Below, piece by piece: positions 16,177 to 62,575 of a stretch of DNA of 64,000 nucleotides. Positions within the stretch are counted from its first letter, which is position 1, and every line of letters begins with the position of its first letter. The stretch comes from Alphaproteobacteria bacterium (lineage in GTDB: Bacteria; Pseudomonadota; Alphaproteobacteria; MPNO01; UBA830), in the NCBI GenBank assembly GCA_964291215.2, contig OZ219791.1:1760001-1824000 (forward strand), written 5' to 3'. The notes under the pieces were generated by a model, which did not search any database, was not told the origin of the DNA, and saw only the letters and a list, made by a program, of their open reading frames with translations. A program made the translations under genes and the position numbers.

Positions 16177-17487
16177 CACTTATTTGCGGGACGCTACACT
16201 AGCCAGACAATCATCACGGCGATCCCACGCTAGGTTTGTTGGAAGGGTCGGTTTTGCTTGTTCAGGATGATTCGCATTTTCGCTGGCTTTTTGTGAAGCG
16301 GCGTAGTATCCGTTGTCGTGGGGGCAGCGGATTTTTTTGAGACGACTCCGGAGGGTTTTGAGCTCCGGGATGTGGTTGTGCGCCTTGCGCGGCCTGATGT
16401 CGCTGGAATCGTGTCGTTGACCGTCATCCTTGGTTTCAAGCAGTTTGCCGGTCGAGGTCTGCGTGTTCACCTGGCGCGGGCGGTGGATTGGCACTGCAGG
16501 CTGGCAGACGGGCGCCCTCAGCTGCGCACCCGTTGGATTGGCTGGCGCCGCGAGGAACAGTTCAGGCGGTTGCCGGGAACAACACGAGGTTTGTTGTTCT
16601 TGGTGGTCGTTTCCGGGCCTTGCCTCGTTTGCGTTGTCGCGGATGGTGCGGCGGCGACTGGGAGGCTGCCGTTGCTTGTTGCGGAGTCGTTTGTCTTGCC
16701 GACGAAGTTCAGCGGCACCATGTACAAGGCGGCGAACTGGGAGTGCGTTGGCAGGAGCTATGCGCGCGCCAGCGGGCGCTATACCGACCGGGGAGGCGAA
16801 GGATCCTTACGTGTTTCCGCTGCGTCGCGACGCGGGATCGTTCGCCGCTTCCTGTGGCGTGGGAGTTGCGGGCGCCGCTGGTCGGCGCAGGAGTTGCGCT
16901 CGATTTATCAGCGGCGCTTTCCGGCGTGCGCAGGGGCACCGCATCGCCTCGGTGCTGTGCGTGATGGCGCGGCTTGCGAACCGGCGCGGCGGCGCACTAC
17001 GACGCAGAAGGAGCTGGAGCAGCGTGGAAGAACAGGGACAAGCCGGTCTCCACCGTGCACCGGGTGCTGCAGAACACCGACCCGGGATGGATCGAGGATG
17101 CGGCGCGCAGCCGCAGGTCGGCAACGCGGTCGACGGCAAGCGCACCGGCGAGGATCATTACGAGACGGTCTCGCTGGCCGGTATTCGATCCTCAACTGTC
17201 ACGACGGGGAGATCGCTGCCGTCCACGCCGCGACGGCCGTCTGCTCATCCTCGACGCGCTCCACACCACCCGCGAGGCTGATCGTCGAGACCCATCGCGC
17301 GGACTGATGGTCAAGGGCAACGCACCTTCGAGAGCATCAACTGGAAGACCGCGAGCGCTACAGCGAAAAGCCCGCGCATGGCCGCCAGCGCATCATCTTC
17401 ACCCCGCTGGCGAAGATGATCAACTAGCAGATCTTCCGCGTCACCCGGCGCGTCGAATTCAGGAAATCCGGAAAACCGAACACGCCA

Positions 17488-18851
17488 TATGACCAGGTTT
17501 TGTCCCCTTGATGATGAAATCATCCACAGCAGTTGGGGGCGGGAAAATGTGGATCTGTGGGAAAGCTATGGTTGCAGAGAGATTCCGCTCCCCTGAGCGA
17601 ACACGCACAGGGGAGCAAACGATCTCCGCGGAGGTTGCCGTTTTGACCTTGACAGAGCCGCGACCGAGTGTGGCAACCTCCCTTGACGTTCCTCGCTGGA
17701 TGCTTGGGTTTGAACCCGTATCATCGTAAGGCGAGGAGCAAGGGACGATGGTCAAGATAGTAGCAGGGGTCAGCAAGGCCAGTCTGGACATCTGGCGCAT
17801 TGTTTTGCGAACGACGCCACGGGCAAGTGGCTTCGCGGCCTCGGGGTGAGCCGGGTGGTAATGGAGGCGACAGGCCGCTATCACCGCAAGGTTCACCAGT
17901 GTCTTCATGACCGGGGCTTCGAGGTTATTCTCGTCAACCCGTTGCGGGCTTCGCCGAGGCGATGGGCCATCTGGCCAAAACCGACCGCGTCGACGCGTTG
18001 ATGTTGGCCAAGATCGGCTGGGCGATCTCGAGCCTGTGGCTCCGCCTTCCTCAAGAGCTTGGAGGATCTCTTGGTGCCGCGCTTGTCGACGCCAAGCAGG
18101 TGGCAGATGAGGTAGATGGCGAAGGCGAGACCGTCACAAGGGCCTCAGCGGCCGATCTCGATGACCGCATTGCCGGCGCGGCGATCAAAGCGGTGATCGC
18201 CGGTGATCCCGAGCAGAGGTACGCCATCCTGACCTCGATCCGGTGACCGCCGCGGCCCTTCTTTGCTGGATGCCCGAACTCGGCAGCGTCGGCAGCCTTG
18301 ATCGGGGTGGCGCCAACGACCACGGTGCTCGGCACATCCGTGGCGGGCGCCGAAGGCCACGTGATCTCCTGTTCATGGCCGCAACCGGCACGCTTCAACG
18401 CGGACCTGGTGCGCCACAAGGCCCACAAAGTCGCTATTGTCGCCGTGATGCGCAAGCTCTGGCGAACACCTTGCTGCGACAGCAGCGTTGCCTGAAGCAC
18501 CGGTGAGTGAGCGAAGGAGACACGGCCCTGCCGAGAGCGCGATCGGGACTGTATCGACAGTCTCCCTCTACGACACGACTTGGGGAGAATGTCTGCAGAT
18601 CATCGTCGAGGTCGACATCAAGGAGATCGAACCGCCGCGCGCCTTGTGGACGGGACACCTGGAACCCGGACGGTCACGTGCCCGGGGACGGCAAGGTAGC
18701 CGCGTTCACGTGACCAATGGACGGCAACCCGCCGCCGGGACCACAAGCTTCATGTCGCCTCGCTCGCAGAGCAAATCCCACACCGCTTGTGGACAACCAC
18801 AGAAAACATCACCACAGACACCCGCAAAAACCTTGCCAAGAAACATGGATG
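17488..18851 (+). mobile_element. degenerate IS110-family (bridge recombinase) element, copy 1; ORF from ATG 17748
   Basis: GV-SKASLD, MEATGRYHR, KTDRVDA, IGVAP, RHIRGGR; long non-coding ends; CT core at 18852-53; no IRs seen. Confidence 0.85.
17587..17745 (+). ncRNA. putative IS110 bridge RNA (5' stem-loop, target-binding loop, donor-binding loop)
   Basis: Hairpin GCTCCCCTG/CAGGGGAGC; stem GGAGGTTGCC (17630-39)/GGCAACCTCC (17672-81) encloses TGACCT and CGACCGAG; stem CCTCGC/GCGAGG encloses TGGATGCT and TCATCGTAAG; these segments match the insertion site and the element ends. Confidence 0.8.
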
Positions 18852-19825
18852 CTCGGTCAAGCGCGCCTCGCCGCAACAGCTGCTCGCATGGAATCGCGGA
18901 CACCGGGTAGTCGAGAGCCACCATCATGTCCGCGATGCCACCTTCCGCGAAGACGACTCCATGCTCCGAACGCGCCCGCAAACAACGCGATCACCCTCGC
19001 AATCATCATCCGCAACAAACGCAAGCTGCGCAAACCCTTCAACAGCTTCGTCGACACCACTATGCCGACAAGCGCAAGCAAGTCCTGCACGCAATCACAA
19101 GACCAGGCTGACCGCGCCTCTCTCCCCGACAGAAACTGCAAGCTTTCGAGCCCGGCAACCAAGGCCTCTCGCTCGCCCCGGATACGCCGACCAATCGCGC
19201 CCCGCGCCGTAACAGCGCGTCAGCAAATCTCAAAATCGCAGCCTCGAACGCGTCGACCCGCGCCGCGATCAGGACTCCGATCACATCACATCAACAAGCA
19301 TGGGATCACCTTGGACAATCATGCTTCTGCACAAGGACACTTGGCTGACTCGCACCGACAACGGCCCGGCGAGGCGAGCCAAGCCTCAACAACATTGCGC
19401 TCCGCGGTGATCTTCGCCAACCGCCGCGAGGCTATCGACTCCCTGACCCGGCCCCGTCAGGAATCGAAAACGAGTTATTCGGGTCGGAAACGCTGCCCGT
19501 GTTGGCATGCGGGCGGCCCCGAAGCCACGGAATCCAGCCAGAACATGCCGAATTTGGCCTCCGTTTTTTTCAACCTCCCGAAAGATCAGTTGCGGAATGG
19601 GGTAGTCCTGCTACACCGTCACACTGCGCTGGACAAGACGGAGCATATGCATAACGAAACATCATTCGGCCGGAATCCCGGCCCCTGTGCCTGATGTTAC
19701 CACTAATGGCCCAACTTGCCGCATAGAACTGCGACGGAGTGGTACCTGCGGCCCATTTCGCCTATTGTGTCGCGTGCACGGCCGTCACGCTGATTGGCCG
19801 CAACTTCGGGGAAGCCAGCGCTCTA

Positions 19826-25692: not shown

Positions 25693-27049
25693 CACGGTGA
25701 TCCCACGCCAGGTTTGTTGGAAGGGTCGGTTTCGCTTGTTCAGGATGATTCGCATTTTCGCCGATTTTTTGTGAAGCGGCGTAGTATCCGTTGTCGTGGA
25801 GGCAGCGGATTTTTTGAGACGACTCTGGAGGGTTTTGCGCTCCGGGATGTGGTTGTGCGCCTTGCGCGGCCTGATGTCGCTGGAATCGTGCGGTTGACGG
25901 TATCCTGGTTTCAAGCAGTTTGCCGGTCGAGGTCTGCGTGTTCACCTGGCGCGGGCGGTGGATTGGCGCTGCGGGCTGGCAGACGGGCGCCCTCGGCTGC
26001 GGGACCGTTGGATTGGCTGGCGCCGCGAGGAACAGTTCAGGCGACCACCAGGAACAACACGAGGTTTGTTGTTCCTGGTGGTCGCCGAGTGTTTCCGGGC
26101 CTCGTTTGCGTTGTCGCGGATGGTGCGGCGGCGGCCGGGAGGCTGGCGTTGCTTGTTGCGGAGTCGTTTGTCTCGCCGACGAAGTTCAGCAGCACCATGT
26201 ACAAGGCGGCGAACCGGGAGTGTGTTGGCAGGAGCCATGCGCGCGCCAGCGGGCGCCATAGCGACCGGCACGGGGAGGCGAAGGATCCTTACGTGTTTCC
26301 GCTGCGTCGTGACGCGGGATCGTTCGCCGCTTCCTGCGGCGTGGGAGTTGCGGGCGCCGCTGGTCGGCGCAGGAGTTGCGCTCGATTTATCAGCGGCGCT
26401 TTCCGGCGCGGGGCACCGCATCGCCTCGGTGCTGTGCGTGATTTTGCTGGCGTGGCTTGCGAACCGGCGTGGTTGCGGCGGCGCACTACGCGATGACGCA
26501 GAAGGAGCTGGAGCAGCGTGGAAGAACAGGGACAAGCCGGTCTCCACCGTGCACCGGGTGCTGCAGAACACCGACCCGGGATGGATCGAGGATGCGGCGC
26601 GCAGCCGCAGGTCGGCAACGCGGTCGACGGCAAGCGCGGCCGCACCGGCGAGGATCATTACGAGACAGTCTCGCTGGCACGGGACCGGTATGCCGGTTTC
26701 GATCCTCAACTATCACGACGGGGAGATCGCTGCCGTCCACGCCGCGACGGCACCGGTTGCTGGCCGTCTGCTCACCCTCGACGCGCTCCACACCACCCGC
26801 GCAGCTGATCGTCGAGACCCATCGCGCGGACTGATGGTCAAGGACAACGCATCTTCGAGAGCATCAACTGGAAGACCGCGAGCACGGGACGCTACAGCGA
26901 AAAGCCCGCGCATGGCCGCCAGCGCACCATCGAGGTCTTCACCCCGCTGGCGAAGATGATCAACTAGTCAAGCAGATCTTCCGCGTCACCCGGCGCGTCG
27001 AATTCAGGAAATCCGGAAAACCGAACACGCCATGACCTTATATGACTAG

Positions 27050-29715
27050 TGTTATGTCAGCAATGATATGTCGTACATTTGGTGCTAGACTGTCCGTCCA
27101 TTCGGGATGGAGGTCGGAGTATGAAACGCTACGTGGTGACCCTGGACGAACGGGCAGAACTTTCGGAGATCACGACCAAGGGCTCGCATCTGTCGCAAAA
27201 GGTAATCAACGCCCTGCTCAACTGCGACGAGGGCGCGTTCAATGAATGCCAGATGACCGGGAAGGTCATTGCCGAGATTCTGCGCATCAGCATGCGCAAA
27301 GTAGATCGGGTGAAAAAGCGTTTCGTTGAAGAGGGGCTGGAGGCGGCATTGGGTGGCCGGCAAGGACGCCGTCCTACCTACATGCGAAAAGCCGACGGCG
27401 CCTTCGAGGCGCGTGGCCCTGAGTTGTGGTGAACCGCCTGAGGGTTACGCGCAATGGTCGTTGCGGCTGCTGGCCGACCGCGTTGTTGAGCTTGGTTACG
27501 CCGTGTCACACGAGACGGTGCGGCGTGTGCTAAAAAAACTGCCTCAAGCCATGGCAGCGGGTGGGTGATTCCTCCTCAAGGGAACGCCGACTTCGCCGCA
27601 GCGAAGGTGCTCGATGTCTATCGCCGCCCCGCCGCTTTCCCCGTGGTCTGCATGGACGAAACGCCCCGACCGGCGAGACACGGCAACCGATCGCCATGGC
27701 GCCGGGACGGGCGTAACGACTACGAGTATCGACGTTGCGGTACCTGCAACGTCTTCACGGAACCCCTGGCCGGCAAGCGCATGACCAAGGTAACCGAGCG
27801 CAAGATCGACTGGGCGCAGTTCCTGGCCGACATCGCCGGGCGCTACCAAGATGCCATCACCATCACCCTGGTGATGGACAATCTCAACACTCCCCGGCGC
27901 CCTCTACGAGGCCTACCCGCCGGACGAGGCCAAGGCCCTGTGGGACCGCTTCGAGTTCGTCTACACCCCCAAGCATGGCAGTTGGCTGAACGTGGTGGAA
28001 CTCAACGTCATGATCCGCCTGAACCGCCGCATCGACTGCATCGAGGTGCTACGCCGGGAAGTTGCCGCTTGGCAGGCGACCGCATCCAGGCCAAGGTGGA
28101 TTGGCAGTTCACCACCGACGATGCCCGCGTGAAACTCAAACGCCTTTATTCGATATTTTACGGTAACTGCTCACCCCCTGGTTCCGGCTTGATGTCGGGG
28201 TAGAGTAACGAACGGGTTTTCGTGGAGATTTGACACTGCATGCCGATTCGCTTAGTGGTGGTCATCGAGAACGACGGGGACCGCCAGTGGGCTACTTTGG
28301 ATCGAAGGCGACGAGCGGGCTGTGCCAGCTGCTTCCGGGGCTCCAGCCCCCGCATGATCTGTATGTGGAAACGCATCTCGGAGGCGGCGCGCTGATGAAG
28401 CGCAAGGCCGGGTGATGGCGACGGTCAACGCAGCGTCGCTGCGCGAGGAGTTCGAAGCGGCCAAGACCGCGGCGCTGCCGGCAAGGTGGCGGAAGAGGCC
28501 GTGATCCGCGTCTTCGTCATCCTGCTCGACATCCTCATCGTCGTCCTTCTGGAGAAGACCACGCACGAGCCGGAACTCCGGTCTGCCGCCGTCACAGACG
28601 GACAAGAGCGTGCCGGGAGCAACGGCCCGAAGCCGAACCGGCAGATGGGCGACAACCTGCGCAAGACCATCGTCGAGGAGACGGTCGCGGCCTGCGACGC
28701 CTGCGGCGCCGACGGCCCCGTCGATCGGGAGCGCCGCACGACATCGTGTTCGAGGTCGTCGAGCGCCGCGCCGAGATCAAGGAATGCCCGAAGTGCAAGG
28801 CCCGGGGCCGGTTCCCCGACAACATCCCGTGCAGTACGGCATCGGCATCCAAGCCCTCGTCATCAACCTGCTGGTCGCCCAAATGCTGTCCCTGCGCCGT
28901 GCCGTTGCGTTCGTGCAGGCGATCTCCGGCATCAAGCTCTCCGAGGCCTCGGCTATGCTTTCACGATGCGTCATGGGAGGAGGCCGCCGTGGCGCACCTC
29001 CTGCAACGCCCGGCCCTGCATGTCGATGAGACCGGCTTTCGGATCAACAGTAAGTGGCTTCATGTCGTGGGACCCTGACGTGCAAGTTCCCGCACCGCAA
29101 GCGCGGCCGGGAGGCAAGAGATCGGCCCGTGTTACAAGGGCGTCCTGGGCCTCGTACATGGGCCAGTGTAGCCACCAGCTGTGCGGCAGCCACCTGCTGC
29201 GCGAACTGACCTTTGTCGTCGAGGCTACCGCGCGACTGATGAAGAGCCTGCTCCGCGAGGTCTGCCACAAGGTCAACAAGAGCGCATCCAAAACCCTGAA
29301 CGACGCCGGGCGCAAGCGCTACCGCACCATCCTCACGCAGGGCGCCAGGGAACTGCCCGACATCCCGCCGCCGCCGAAAGGAAAACGCATAGCAAACGCG
29401 CACAACCTGCACGAACGTCTCGTGAAACACGAAAACCTGCGCTTCACAGACGACCCCAACGTCAGCTTCACCAACAATGCCGGAGAACAGAAGATCAGGA
29501 TGGCAAAGGTCAAGGTGTCCGGATGCTTCCGCTCCACGCAAAAGCATGGTGCCGGAGCTCAAGCTACCTCACCTCCATGGCGGCACTCGGCTACAACCCA
29601 CTCGTCGCCACCCAGATCGCCCTCGACGGAAAAGCCGCAGACATCATCAACGAGCACTATGGCCAATCAGAACCCAACAAGGGGTGAGTAGATACATTTT
29701 ACGAATGACAAGACA
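27050..29715 (+). mobile_element. degenerate IS630-family element (second type)
   Basis: CTAG at 27046-49 and 29716-19; PEGYAQWSLRLLA, A-run at ~27532, VVCMDETP, DYEYRRCGTCNVF, MDNLNT, VDWQFTTDDARVKLKRLY. Confidence 0.85.
28163..29695 (+). mobile_element. degenerate IS66-like element type B, copy 1 (methylase ORF largely deleted)
   Basis: Ends GTAACTGCTCACCCC / GGGGTGAGTAGATAC; perfect 8-bp TSD ATTTTACG; LHVDETGFR, HQLCGSHLLREL, SFTNNAGEQKIRMAKVKVSGCFRS. Confidence 0.88.
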
Positions 29716-31526
29716 CTAGGTTTTGTCCCCTTGATGATGAAATCATCCACAGCAGTTGGGGGCGGGAAAATGTGGGTAACCCCGACTGTGGGAGAGCATC
29801 CGGTTTATGGTTGCAGAGAGATTTCGCTCCCCTGAGCGAACACGCACAGGGGATCAAACGATCTCCGCGGAGGTTGCCGTTTCGACCTTGACAGAGCCGC
29901 GTCCGAGTTTGGCAACCTCCCTTGACGTCCCTCGCTGGATGCCTGGGTTTGAACCCATCGTAAGGCGAGGAGCAAGGGACGATGGTCAAGGTAGTAGCAG
30001 GGGTCAGCCAGTCTGGACATCTGGCGCATTGTTTTGCGAACGACGCCACGAGCTGGCGGGCAGGCGGCCTCGGGGTGAGCCGGGTGGTGGGCGACAGGCC
30101 GCTATCACCGCAAGGTTCACCAGTGTCTTCATGACCGGGGCTTCGAGGTTATTCTCGTCAACCCGTTGCGGGCGCTTCGCCGAGGCGATGGGCCAACCGC
30201 GTCGACGCCAAGATCGGCTGGGCGATCTTGAGCCTGTGGCTCCGCCTTCCTCAAGAGCCTGGAGGATCTCTTGGTGCCGCGCTTGTCGACGCCAAGCAGG
30301 TGGCAGATGAGGTGGATGGCGAGACCGTCACAAGGGCCTCGGCGGCCGATCTCGATGATTGCATTGCCGGCGCGGCGATCAAAGCGGTGATCACCGGTGA
30401 TCCCGAGCAGAGGTACGCCATCCTGACCTCGATCCGGTGACCGCCGCGGCCCTTCTTTGCTGGATGCCCGAACTCGGCAGCGTCGGCAGCCTTGATCGGG
30501 GTGGCGCCAACGACTACGGTGCTCGGCACATCCGTGGCGGGCGCCGAAGGCCACGCGATCTCCTGGCCGCAACCGGCACGCTTCAACGCGGACCTGGTGT
30601 GCCTCAAGACTGCCGGCAAGCAAGGTCGCGATTGTCGCCGTGATGCGCAAGCTCTGGCGAACACCTTGCTGCGACAGCAGCGTTGCCTGAAGCACCGGTG
30701 AGTGAGCGAAGGAGAGACGGCCCTCACCCCTGCCGAGAGCGCGACCGGGACTGTCTCGACAGTCTCCCTCTACGACACGACTTGGGGAGAATGTCTGCAG
30801 ATCATCGTCGAGGCCGACATCGAGGAGATCGAACCGCCTTGGGACACCTGGAACCCGGACGGTCACGTTACCATGCCCGGGGACGGCAAGGTAGCCGCGT
30901 TCACGTGACCAATGGACGGCAACCCGCCGCCGGGACCACAAGCTTCATGTCGCCTCGCTCGCAGAGCAAACCCCACACCGCTTGTGGACAACCACAGAAA
31001 ACATCACCACAGACACCCGCAAAAAACCTTGCCAAGAAACATGGATGCTCGGTCGAACACGCCTCGCCGCAACAGTTGCTCGCATGGGATCGCGGACACC
31101 GGGTGGTCGAGAGCCATCACCACATATCCACCTTCCGCGAAGACGACCCCATGCTCCGAACGCGCCCGCAAACAACGCGATCACCCTCGCAATCATCATC
31201 CACAACAAGCGCAAGCTGCGCAAACCCTTCAACAGCTTCCCACCATGCCGACAAGCGCAAGCAGGTCCTGCACGCAATCACAAGACCAGGCTGACCGCGC
31301 CTCTCTCCCCGGCAGAAACCGCAAGCTTTCGAGCCCGGCAACCAAGGCCTCTCGCTCGCCCCGGATACGCCGACCAATCGCGCCCCGCGCCGCAACAGCG
31401 CGTCAGCAAATCTCAAAATCGCAGCCTCGAACGCGTCGACCCGCGCCGCGATCAGGACTCCGATCACATCACATCAACAAGCATGGGATCACCTTGCCAT
31501 AAGGGGGGCGCTCTGCGCACCGAGTA

Positions 31527-47545: not shown

Positions 47546-47561
47546 GGACATCCTCTGTTCC

Positions 47562-49347
47562 CACGGCGATCCCACGCCAGGTTTGTTGGAAGGGTCGGTT
47601 TTGCTTGTTCAGGATGATTCGCATTTTCGCTGGCTTTTTGTGAAGCGGCGTAGTATCCGTTGTCGTGGGGGCAGCGGATTTTTTTGAGACGACTCCGGAG
47701 GGTTTTGAGCTCCGGGATGTGGTTGTGCGCCTTGCGCGGCCTGATGTCGCTGGAACCGTGTTGTTGACCGTATCTTGGTTTCAAGCAGTTTGCCGGTCGA
47801 GGTCTGCGTGTTCACCTGGCGCGGGCGGTGGATTGGTGCTGCGGGCTGGCAGACGGGCGCCCTCAGCTGCGCACCCGTTGGATTGGCTGGCGCCGCGAGG
47901 AACAGTTCAGGCGGTTGCCGGGAACAACACGAGGTTTGTTGTTCCTGGTGGTCGTTTCCGGGCCTTGCCTCGTTTGCGTTGTCGCGGATGGTGCGGCGGC
48001 GACTGGGAGGCTGCGTACGGCCATCCGTTGCTTGTTGCGGAGTCGTTTGTCTCGCCGACGAAGTTCAGCGGCACCATGTACAAGGCGGCGAGCTGGGAGT
48101 GCGTTGGCAGGAGCCATGCGCGCGCCAGCGGGCGCCATAGCGACCGGGGAGGCGAAGGCTCTTTACGTGTTTCCGCTGCGTCGTGACGTCGGCTGCGGGA
48201 TCGTTCGCCGCTTGCTGTGGCGTGGGAGTTGCGGGCGCCGCTGGTCGGCGCAGGAGTTGCGCTCGATTTATCAGCGGCGCTTTCCGGCGCGCGCAGGGGC
48301 ACCGCATCGCCTCGGTGCTGTGCGTGATGGCGCGGCTTGCGAACCGGCACGGTTGCGGCGGCGCACTACGCGATGACGCAGAAGGAGCTGGAGCAGCATG
48401 GAAGAACAGGGACAAGCCGGTCTCCACCGTGCACCGGGTGCTGCAGAACACCGACCCGGGATGGATCGAGGATGCGGCGCGCAGCCGCAGGTCGGCAACG
48501 CGGTCGACGGCAAGCGCGGCCGCACCGGCGAGGATCATTACGAGACGGTCTCGCTGGCCGGTATTCGATCCTCAACTATCACGACGGGGAGATCGCTGCC
48601 GTCCACGCCGCGACGGCGCTGGCCGTCTGCTCACCCTCGACGCGCTCCACACCACCCGCGAGGCTGATCATCGAGACCCATCGCGCGGACTGATGGTCAA
48701 GGGCAACGCACCTTCGAGAGAGCATCAACTGGAAGACCGCCAGCGCTACAACGAAAAGCCCGCGCATGGCCGCAGCGCACCATCTTCACCCCGCTGGCGA
48801 AGATGATCAACTAGCAGATCTTCCGCGTCACCCGGCGCGTCGAATTCAAGAAATCCGGAAAACGGACAACCGAATACGCCATGACCTCGGCCGAACGCGC
48901 CTCGCCGCAACAGCTGCTCGCATGGAATCGCGGACACTGGGTAGTCGAGAGCCACCATCATGTCCGCGATGCCACCTTCCGCGAAGACGACTCCATGCTC
49001 CGAACGCGCCCGCAAACAACGCGATCACCCTCGCAATCATCATCCGCAACAAACGCAAGCTGCCCAAACCCTTCAACAGCTTCGTCGACACCACTATGCC
49101 AACAAGCGCAAGCAGGTCCTGCACGCAATCACAAGACCAGGCTGACCGCGCCTCTCTCCCCGACAGAAACTGCAAGCTTTCGAGCCCGGCAACCAAGGCC
49201 TCTCGCTCGCCCCGGATACGCCGACCAATCGCGCCCCGCGCCGTAACAGCACGTCAGCAAATCTCAAAATCGCAGCCTCGAACGCGTCGACCCGCGCCGC
49301 GATCAGGACTCAGATCACATCACATCAACAAGCATGGGATCACCTTG
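47562..49347 (+). mobile_element. degenerate ISAs1-like element, copy 3 (IS110 site empty at 48881-93)
   Basis: Same IRs as copies 1 and 2; perfect 10-bp TSD CCTCTGTTCC (47552-61, 49348-57). Confidence 0.9.
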
Positions 49348-49496
49348 CCTCTGTTCCGGACCGGGGCTGTAAACGTACCGGCTTCGCGATATAGTTGCGT
49401 GTGCTGGCCCACCTTTCCCCTTGGCCGGCTGCTGGAAGGCGCGGGGACGGAGTATCGGTCCCGTCTGTGATCGTCGATTTGGCCGGGAGATTGACA

Positions 49497-56651: not shown

Positions 56652-56747
56652 TGGCGGAAAAGAGTGGGAGTCGAACCCACCAGGGACGTCTCACGCCCCT
56701 CACCGGTTTTGAAGACCGGGCGCCCCACCGGGGAACGATTCTCTTCC
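56652..56747 (-). tRNA. selC: tRNA-Sec (anticodon UCA)
   Basis: 96 nt, GGAAGAG...CTTTTCCGCCA; anticodon arm CCGGT-CTTCAAA-ACCGG; long variable arm; GGTTCGACTCC. Confidence 0.97.
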
Positions 56748-61094: not shown

Positions 61095-62575
61095 CGGCCA
61101 GAATGGCATCCGCCCAAATCACACCCCGGCACTGGCCGCATGAGATGAACAAATGGTACTGAGCCTGCAACTGTGCCATACGAAACTCTCACCCTGTTCA
61201 TCAGGGCAACCAAAACCCACAGCACCGCAGACGGCAAACCCGTCCACCGGCTCGTGCTTTCTCAACGCATCGGCCGACAAGGTCAGGCAGCGCACGCTGC
61301 CTCGGCACCAACTATCCGGTGGCGCGCAAGAACTGGAAGGAGGTTGCCGCCGAAGCGCTGGCCGCCCGCCGCTGTTCGAAGCCGCGTGCAGGCCGCAGCC
61401 GAGGACATCGTCAACAGGGGCCCGGAGGTTCCGCGCCGACGCTCCGGAGGAAGACGCACGCAAATTGCGACCGTCAACCTCGACAGCCTCGAGAACCCGC
61501 GCTCGGTCGGCTGGCCTGTACCTCGAGGCGCGGTCTCGGCTTCACGACCTCGGCATCACGGGCCGCGAGTGCGCTGATCGTCGCTAGGATGATCCGCCAG
61601 CGAGCGCTGGCTGCGCGATGACAGCGTGACCGCGGAGCTTCGATCTGGAGGGCAAGGCGCGCAAGACGCTGTACCGCATCGGCGACCTGCGTCACCGGAC
61701 CGCCATCCGGAAAGAACTGTTCAACCACGAGCGCGCGCTGCATCCCCGACACCATCGCCTTTTACGACCTCACCAATGTTCACGGCCGCGCCGACGGCAA
61801 GCTGCCCCGCTTCGGGCGCTCGAAGCGCAATGATTGCCCCACGCTTGCGCGGCGCGGGCTTTCGGCGCAGTTGCGAGGTCTTGCGGGGCAACGTGAGCGA
61901 ACCCGGTACGCTGGAGGACGCGCTGTCGAGGCTGGAGGCGGCCCGGCGGCGAAGCCGACGGCAGTCATGGACGCCGGCACCGAGGCGAACATCGCGTGGC
62001 GAGCACGGCTGGATCGCGGGCGGCGCCGCCCGAGGGTGGGCCCGAGGCTGATCACCAACCACGAGGTGCAGGCGCCTTGCCAGCAAGGATGGCGCGGCTC
62101 TACGTGGTCAGCGAGAGCAGGAAGAGGGCGAGGACGCCATTCCTGACCGCAGGGCTTCGAGGCGGCAAAGCTCCACCTCCAAGGGCCGGCGCCACGACAA
62201 GGTGCTGGAGAGCGGTCTCAGGCAGCGCTTCTCCACCGTCGTCCGGCACTACGAGATCACCGTCGAGAAGGCCGGCGCCAACGCAACGGCCGTGCGCTTC
62301 AGCCACAGACGACAAGACAACGCGGGCGCCTGCGCACCAGCGACCGGGATATCGAGACCGTCCTCAGGACATGGATCACGGATATCGAGGCCACCTTCCG
62401 TTCATTGAAATCCGAGCTCGGATTGCGCCCGGCCAGCGCATCGCCGCCCACCTGTTGATCGCCGTGCTCGCCGCGGTGCATCTGATCCCCGCGCGGGGCA
62501 TCGACAAGTGCCGGACATCAATCCGCGAGAGCATGCGGAACCAGGGTCACCACGCGCCTGCGCGCATTTTTTGAT
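61095..62575 (+). mobile_element. degenerate IS1634-like element
   Basis: FIRATKT...HRLV.SQRI..KVRQRTL, YDLTN, RFGRSK, GNVSEPGTL, VMDAG, DIEATFRSLKSELGLRP. Confidence 0.7.

Follow-up and report, generated by a model that had tools for sequence, protein, structure and literature searches.

The window that we analysed, i.e., the 64,000 nucleotides from position 1,760,001 to 1,824,000 of contig OZ219791.1 in the genome of an alphaproteobacterium (assembly GCA_964291215.2), contains a decayed insertion sequence (IS) of the IS110 group, hereafter copy 1, lodged in a transposase gene of the ISAs1 family. It is very probable that copy 1 is a dead member of this group and that the bridge RNA predicted in its left end guided its insertion at the site ATGAC-CT-CGGTCG of that gene. 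The mechanism by which such RNAs direct insertion is already established; the contribution of this genome is a fossil record of guide retargeting. The element is present at 78 loci (blastn, chained), 57 of them full length, in a genome of 6.15 Mb with 64% G+C. The initial annotation of the window proposed a bridge RNA with a left and a right target guide (LTG, RTG) and a left and a right donor guide (LDG, RDG). This reading is supported by comparisons of guides with flanks and by alignment, and the motif positions given for the loops and right end of copy 1 and for the empty site are all correct.

Two predicted guide loops in the left end of the element

The predicted RNA has two stem-enclosed loops upstream of the ATG at 17749, with motifs that lie 150–180 nt inside the element, in positions that follow the layout of IS621. 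The 5' half of each loop reads as the top strand of the left target (or donor) plus the core, and the 3' half as the reverse complement of the core plus the right target (or donor). Loop 1 is enclosed by a stem in which GGAGGTTGCC (17630–17639) pairs with GGCAACCTCC (17672–17681). It carries TGAC-CT (TGACCT at 17644–17649) and the reverse complement of CT-CGGTCG, and its two halves jointly specify the site ATGAC-CT-CGGTCG. Loop 2 is enclosed by the pairing of CCTCGC (17691–17696) with GCGAGG (17731–17736). Its 5' guide, TGGATGCT, is the element's own right end followed by the core (TGGATG-CT), and its 3' half, TAAG, is the reverse complement of the core and two left-end bases.

The RDG changes along with the left end. 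All four copies of this genome whose left end starts with TG carry CAAG, and the last four nucleotides of this guide are the reverse complement of the core and the first two left-end bases in 13 of 14 relatives from other genomes (see below). The ATCATC that precedes TAAG is invariant in 15/15 aligned elements, whatever their left end reads, and because of this we set the RDG at 4 nt instead of 10. The ten-letter match TCATCGTAAG (17721–17730), initially put forward as the donor guide, was therefore rejected: only its last four letters, TAAG, covary and act as such.

The expected fold is recovered in silico. The folding energy predicted for a 191-nt stretch is -87.9 kcal/mol (z = -5.48), a value equalled by none of 200 shuffled sequences. 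RNAalifold, run on 15 sequences, predicts 40 pairs that cover both enclosing stems and small hairpins within each loop; 12 of these show compensatory changes on both sides.

The rest of the element is that of an IS110-group transposon. Dozens of copies share constant ends, LT-CT-TATATGAC...CATGGATG-CT-RT (where LT and RT are the left and right targets), and the sequence between the CT cores runs TATATGAC(C/T)AGGTTTTGTCCCC ... AACATGGATG. Terminal inverted repeats are absent, insertion is scarless with CT at both ends, and empty sites have a single CT. Members of the family have a left end longer than the right, but in copy 1 the left end measures about 261 nt against about 350 nt for the right one; the predicted RNA is still in the left end. 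The corresponding ends of close relatives span about 317 nt and 580–700 nt. The recombinase gene of copy 1 retains a fragment of PF01548 at 17846–17998 (E 2.9e-5, 24.4 bits, under the cut-off of 29), and PF02371 was not detected in this copy itself. In sister copies, PF01548 scores 33.4 and 31.4 bits, over the cut-off, and PF02371 exceeds its cut-off of 21.3 in 16 fragments (best 43.7 bits). Intact 315-aa proteins with both domains, encoded in other genomes, are 80–83% identical to the translated fragments; one of them aligns with the IS621 transposase structure 8wt6 over residues 6–297 (E 2.6e-28). The frames are broken in both copies present in the window, which are pseudogenes as first described.

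Guides follow targets across copies and relatives

The loci of the element split into at least seven guide variants, the young ones being one to three letters apart. The sites of five variants and their guides are given in Table 1; older single copies also fit (CT-CATGA(A/G) with CTCATGAG, and CT-CGTCCA with GGACGAG).

Table 1. Target sites in the genome and the guides that correspond to them
Site	Left guide	Right guide
ATGAC-CT-CGGTCG	TTTTGACCT	CGACCGAG
CCGTC-CT-CGGGA(C/A)	TTCCGTCCT	TTCCCGAG
TCGAC-CT-CGGACA	TTTCGACCT	TGTCCGAG
ATCAC-CT-CGCTCG	TTTTCACCT	CGAGCGAG
ATGAC-CT-CGATCA	TTTTGACCT	CGATCGAG

Sixty-one of the 78 loci have two readable loop halves of standard length, and these provide 16 distinct sites with both flanks. 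For each site, we compared five left and six right positions with the commonest resident guide. The guides match 136 of the 176 positions, a number reached by none of 100,000 permutations of the guides (mean 103.0, standard deviation 6.3). Other copies do occupy other targets, yet their loop letters follow those targets. The same is true outside this genome. A scan of species-representative genomes produced 80 loci, from which we compared 14 intact elements with shared architecture: 118 of 154 positions match, as opposed to 50.3 (standard deviation 7.4) upon permutation, and again none of 100,000 permutations reached the observed value. The few low scores among these relatives are register shifts of the fixed alignment columns. 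That the loops resemble their flanks by chance, or copied letters from them without being guides, is scarcely credible. The copy in the window, taken alone, could suggest it, with matches that are just 6 and 8 nt long, but both permutation tests, the compensatory changes in the stems and the IS621-like positions of the motifs argue against it.

Several observations weigh against a guided insertion by this element. The LTG matches just 4–5 nt plus the core, compared with the 8–9 nt indicated for the family consensus in the accessible part of the IS621 study (PMC11208160). Across 26 distinct pairs of site and guide, the mean is 8.6 matches out of 11; several copies resident in ISAs1 carry a guide that fits another class of site, and in the young clade the guide is often off by one to three letters from its own flank. 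Rfam, searched with the whole window at the gathering score, has no family matching the element (the only match is a tRNA-Sec), and the left end searched at E up to 10 returned only chance snoRNA-like matches (best E 0.56). A scan of the integrated copy for sigma-70 promoters found 0 sites, and none of the public runs listed as containing the sequence is recorded as RNA. Copy 1 lacks its left target and core, which makes precise excision impossible. None of the 78 loci encodes an intact recombinase. When the 57 full-length copies were compared with an intact relative (L031; 1968 nt, 315 codons), six deletions were common to all of them, and a majority sequence built by filling in their gaps contains no full-length frame.

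The mismatches between guides and flanks could possibly result from mismatch-tolerant insertion, from guides provided in trans by sister copies, or from gene conversion. Some copies (C2:3385615–3387052 and others) have left and right flanks of different target classes, which suggests recombination between copies and hence genome rearrangements.

The promoter may be formed elsewhere. If the element behaved as IS621 does, excision would produce a circle whose joined ends create a promoter (TTGCCA, 17 nt, TATGAC) for the RNA; the DEDD/Ser recombinase loaded with this RNA would then recombine donor and target by swapping strands at the CT core. When 18826–18853 is joined to 17488–17495, TTGCCA does stand 17 nt upstream of TATGAC, and the combination of a TATGA left end with TTGMC 17 nt upstream in the joined form is kept in 14/14 relatives. 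These motifs suggest a promoter present only in the excised circle; a junction promoter is also mentioned for IS621 in the part of the study available (PMC11208160).

Targets are mostly transposase genes of other mobile elements

The host of copy 1 was said to be an ISAs1-family transposase gene, and this identification stands. The genome has about 50 copies of this element, the best kept of which has a frame of 579 aa that matches NF033564 with 102.7 bits (cut-off 70), PF13808 with 44.2 bits and PF01609 with 23.8 bits; the empty copy in the window matches PF01609 alone (E 0.024). The insertion site lies at codon 490 of the 579 (..AY/GMTSVEADRASPQQLLGWNRGHRGVESHHHVRDATFHEDDS.., the slash marking the site), so that insertion removes the conserved C-terminal catalytic stretch (HxxRDxTFxEDxS).

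ISAs1 is just one among at least five repeated targets of the family. Four of the five multi-copy targets are sites inside transposase genes, all in sense orientation: besides ISAs1, they are a second element of the ISAs1 family (frame of 670 aa, 90.8 bits), an IS1634-like element (fragments of 56.8 and 51.7 bits, under the cut-off) and an ISNCY-like element (fragments of up to 114.7 bits, under the cut-off). The fifth is a repeat of about 430 bp without family identity. The transposases of the two ISAs1 elements are 49% identical and their sites fall at aligned codons (MTSVE in one, ITSLD in the other); one retargeting step therefore followed the homologous site in a paralogous IS. In both proteins, an N-terminal DruA-like domain (PF14236, 73.7 bits) is fused to DDE_Tnp_1_assoc and DDE_Tnp_1, as can be seen at L009:345–2081 (C2:356544–358280) and L015:48–2057 (C2:460688–462697). 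We scanned the flanks of five close relatives in other genomes. L029 has a DDE_Tnp_1_4 frame next to its left side and L031 an IS66 frame next to its right side, both of them transposase genes, and the remaining three relatives adjoin ordinary genes.

Sites that match the guide are now mostly filled, and those left unoccupied mostly mismatch it. The right halves of ISAs1 are preceded by the IS110 right end in 21 of 44 cases, and all 21 have T at position +4. Of the 20 contiguous ISAs1 sites that are unoccupied, 13 have C at +4, one has a mutated core and six match the guide (+4 base versus occupancy, Fisher p = 4e-6, with copies that are not independent). The empty site of the window, ATGACCTCGGCCG, which is present as initially annotated, has C where the guide expects T. 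Unoccupied sites that match perfectly make up 1/13 in the IS1634-like element, 4/19 in the 430-bp repeat and 1/9 in the ISNCY-like element; in the second ISAs1 element they make up 16/32, and its matched guide is rare. Near-saturation of the matching sites fits this pattern, and lineage structure of the host elements fits it equally.

Unoccupied sites also show small lesions. Six nucleotides are missing exactly at the IS110 site in 13 of the 19 unoccupied 430-bp repeats, and seven nucleotides at the IS110 site in 9 of the 32 unoccupied sites of the second ISAs1 element. In one 430-bp repeat, two CT cores are separated by a retained CATATGA that could be the scar of an excision.

The guides and sites of this genome provide a natural record of the reprogramming of a target loop, i.e., of the letters that changed, the number of steps and the near-cognate sites that were reached. 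For users of bridge recombinases, the unoccupied sites amount to a natural specificity screen: an empty site goes with a single T-to-C change at +4 or with changes in the CG right after the core. The data also suggest a bridge-RNA element that lives almost wholly inside mobile elements, where insertion is costless to the cell and disables a competitor. In terms of genome evolution, one IS family has had a part in inactivating several more, in a genome whose mobile elements are being lost.

Decay of the family and the ways in which copies multiplied

The bridge-RNA system is extinct in this genome, because all 78 loci are without a working recombinase. One of the shared deletions, ATTGAT, removes I8-D9 of the invariant GIDVSK motif. 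It is very improbable that the elements are really intact and that their frames were broken only by misassembly of repeats. The copies do differ chiefly by indels, with few substitutions, but independent short contigs from three public runs have identical letters over pieces of 60–113 nt of copy 1, completeness by marker genes is 99.3%, long ordinary open reading frames flank the IS, and the indels span several bases each, with a structured distribution among the copies that share them.

Since the lesions are shared by all 57 full-length copies, either the family spread while defective or its copies exchanged lesions by gene conversion; put otherwise, a master copy since lost acted in trans throughout the expansion, or the lesions spread later. 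Spread of copies that were already recombinase-dead is possible without being probable. It would require a lost master acting in trans, and with one donor sequence any RNA could place any circle. The lesions extend across three clades and the consensus frame cannot be rebuilt; mismatches between guide and site, as in the young clade, are a prediction of guiding in trans; and the IS621 bridge RNA acts in trans according to the part of the study available (PMC11208160). Against this, gene conversion among some 80 copies, or recurrent deletion at hotspots, could have spread the lesions after insertion, and no master copy was found in the genome itself or in 60 related genomes. In the latter, a DNA search gave no more than three matches, all of them weak (E 3.9e-5 to 8.7e-4). 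On the tree of IS110 copies, those with the junction deletion described below are scattered, which points to conversion or to poor resolution.

Two intact genes of the IS110 family are present in the genome (C1:480856–481836 and C1:883760–884740; 429 and 431 aa) and belong to a distant lineage. We rejected them as a source in trans, as tblastn against the decayed copies gave nothing at E 1e-3.

Decay of the dead IS copies proceeds almost exclusively through the loss of 5–8 nt at a time, for example at 17749–18853 and 47561–49348 of the window. The 57 full-length copies of the IS110 element have 154 distinct deletion events, 95 of which are 5–8 nt long and only 12 of which are 1 nt long; the 80 distinct deletions counted in 15 uninterrupted copies of ISAs1 include 53 of 5–7 nt. 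Microhomology at the deletions (1.47 nt) is barely above the random value (0.75 nt), and we know of no process with a size mode of 5–8 nt. Genomes of the same genus were unusable as an outgroup for the spectrum of indels, with only 64–70% DNA identity.

The family likely spread by insertion into other mobile elements, and its description as a hyperparasite in the initial annotation is a plausible inference, apart from the share of the copy number that came from hitch-hiking with the host IS. At the extreme, the IS110 element would have entered ISAs1 once or a few times, the composites being then moved by intact ISAs1 transposase in trans or by segmental duplication. We consider this an unlikely account of the whole, even though it has left some traces. 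Nine copies resident in ISAs1, including copy 1, share an identical junction deletion of 8 nt, with only 2 nt of microhomology, and therefore multiplied along with the host IS. In copy 1, the deletion took four letters from the end of the left target, both letters of the CT core and two from the start of the element (the junction reads ACGCCA/TATGACC, where ACGCCATGAC-CT-TA/TATGACC is expected). The divergence of IS110 copies correlates with that of the adjacent host (Spearman 0.49), and the T or C at +4 could merely mark two host lineages. On the other hand, divergence in the host flanks is about double that of the IS110 copies that they adjoin (medians of 4.0% versus 2.1%, and 7.6% versus 3.2% in a second comparison), and filled and unfilled hosts are interspersed on a poorly resolved host tree. 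Copies with matching guides also fill another four repeat families and no fewer than four single sites, which hitch-hiking cannot yield. A Mantel test of IS110 copies against host flanks averaged over both sides was not significant (rho = 0.11, a value reached in 519 of 2000 permutations), the left flanks being misaligned owing to other insertions. The trees of IS110 copies and of host right halves are too shallow or mosaic for counting insertion events. Both hitch-hiking and independent insertion have left traces.

In a further scenario, the element radiated inside this one genome. Its target loop would have changed by one to three letters per step and hopped among transposase genes, i.e., those of the two ISAs1 paralogues (at homologous codons) and of the IS1634-like and ISNCY-like elements, until almost all matching sites were filled and mainly mismatched 'escape' copies were left. 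Transposons would then have been engaged in an arms race guided by RNA, in which copies with a dead recombinase may have relied on guides and enzyme shared in trans. We offer it tentatively, and regard it as rather doubtful in its full extent. IS621 shows copy-and-paste behaviour and off-target insertion upon half-matches, according to the accessible part of a 2026 preprint (10.64898/2026.08.31.748434); by analogy, such properties would suit the high copy number and hops to near-cognate sites.

Comparison with known systems

The element most resembles IS621 of Escherichia coli, whose bridge RNA was described by Durrant et al. (2024; PMC11208160, with structures 8wt6–8wt9). Both have a DEDD and Ser recombinase (as judged from the intact relative compared with 8wt6), a CT core on both sides without terminal inverted repeats, and an RNA that is encoded before the gene, within the left end. 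Both RNAs have two internal loops, in which the 5' half pairs with the bottom strand and the 3' half with the top strand, with the core in all four guides. They also share a multi-copy target and an RDG of 4 nt; in the accessible part of the IS621 study, variation of the right donor was limited to 2 bp past the core (PMC11208160). They differ in that the family studied here targets transposase genes of other IS whereas IS621 targets repetitive extragenic palindromic (REP) elements, in the length of the LTG (only 4–5 nt plus the core), in having all copies dead and several guide variants in one genome, and in the long right end (about 580–700 nt) of the close relatives.

IS4321 and IS5075, of the IS1111 group, reportedly insert into the ends of Tn21 (Partridge & Hall 2003). 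In this subgroup, unlike in the present family, the guide RNA follows the gene and there are subterminal inverted repeats, and their target is the end of a transposon, not the reading frame of a transposase.

Homing of IS110-family elements into repeats such as REP and attC is itself established, as stated in the accessible parts of two studies (PMC11208160, PMC11187229). ISPpu9, ISPpu10 and the IS1111-attC group are likewise site-specific members of the family, found in REP, in a conserved intergenic repeat and in attC; their targets are host repeats or integrons, and the portion of that work available to us describes no set of guides retargeted within a genome (PMC11187229). Literature searches, in which subscription journals were not covered, found, among the papers listed, no IS110-group guide aimed at the transposase gene of another IS.

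Organisation of the window

The features of the window are listed in Table 2. The filled site initially reported for a second copy (copy 2) is real: its left junction reads CATGAC-CT-TATATGACTAG (27031–27049) and its body ends with CATGGATG-CT-CGGTCG. The copy is, however, split by a foreign element of about 2.66 kb.

Table 2. Coordinates of the features discussed in the text
Feature	Position	Strand	Remarks
ISAs1-family host, left part, carrying copy 1	16215..17479	+	C2:1776215–1777479; right part after 18853
IS110-family element, copy 1, decayed	17488..18853	+	One locus of an element of about 1.35–1.6 kb
Left non-coding stretch with both loops	17575..17745	+	Fold, alignment with relatives, RNAalifold
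Target-binding loop and stem	17630..17681	+	LTG TTTTGACCT 17641–17649; RTG CGACCGAG 17661–17668
Donor-binding loop and stem	17691..17736	+	LDG TGGATGCT 17697–17704; RDG TAAG 17727–17730
Recombinase pseudogene, DEDD_Tnp_IS110 / Transposase_20 type	17749..18500	+	Many small deletions
Right end of copy 1, CATGGATG, with core and right target	18844..18859	+	CT core 18852–18853; right target CGGTCA
First 11 nt of copy 2	27039..27049	+	Preceded by ATGAC 27032–27036 and CT core 27037–27038
Foreign element (about 2.66 kb) at CTAG inside the left end of copy 2	27050..29716	+	TAG on both sides
Body and right end of copy 2, then right target CGGTCG	29717..31049	+	
Uninterrupted, decayed ISAs1 host	47561..49348	+	Unoccupied site ATGAC-CT-CGGCCG 48881–48893

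The window thus contains a three-level nest, with ISAs1 enclosing copy 2 and copy 2 enclosing the foreign element at 27050–29716. Several other IS110 copies were struck at the identical CTAG by this same element or by others. An IS1634-like host copy with an unoccupied class-B site is also present (61195–62568; C2:1821195–1822568), and a selenocysteine tRNA gene (Rfam RF01852, 75.6 bits) is encoded on the reverse strand at 56656–56747.

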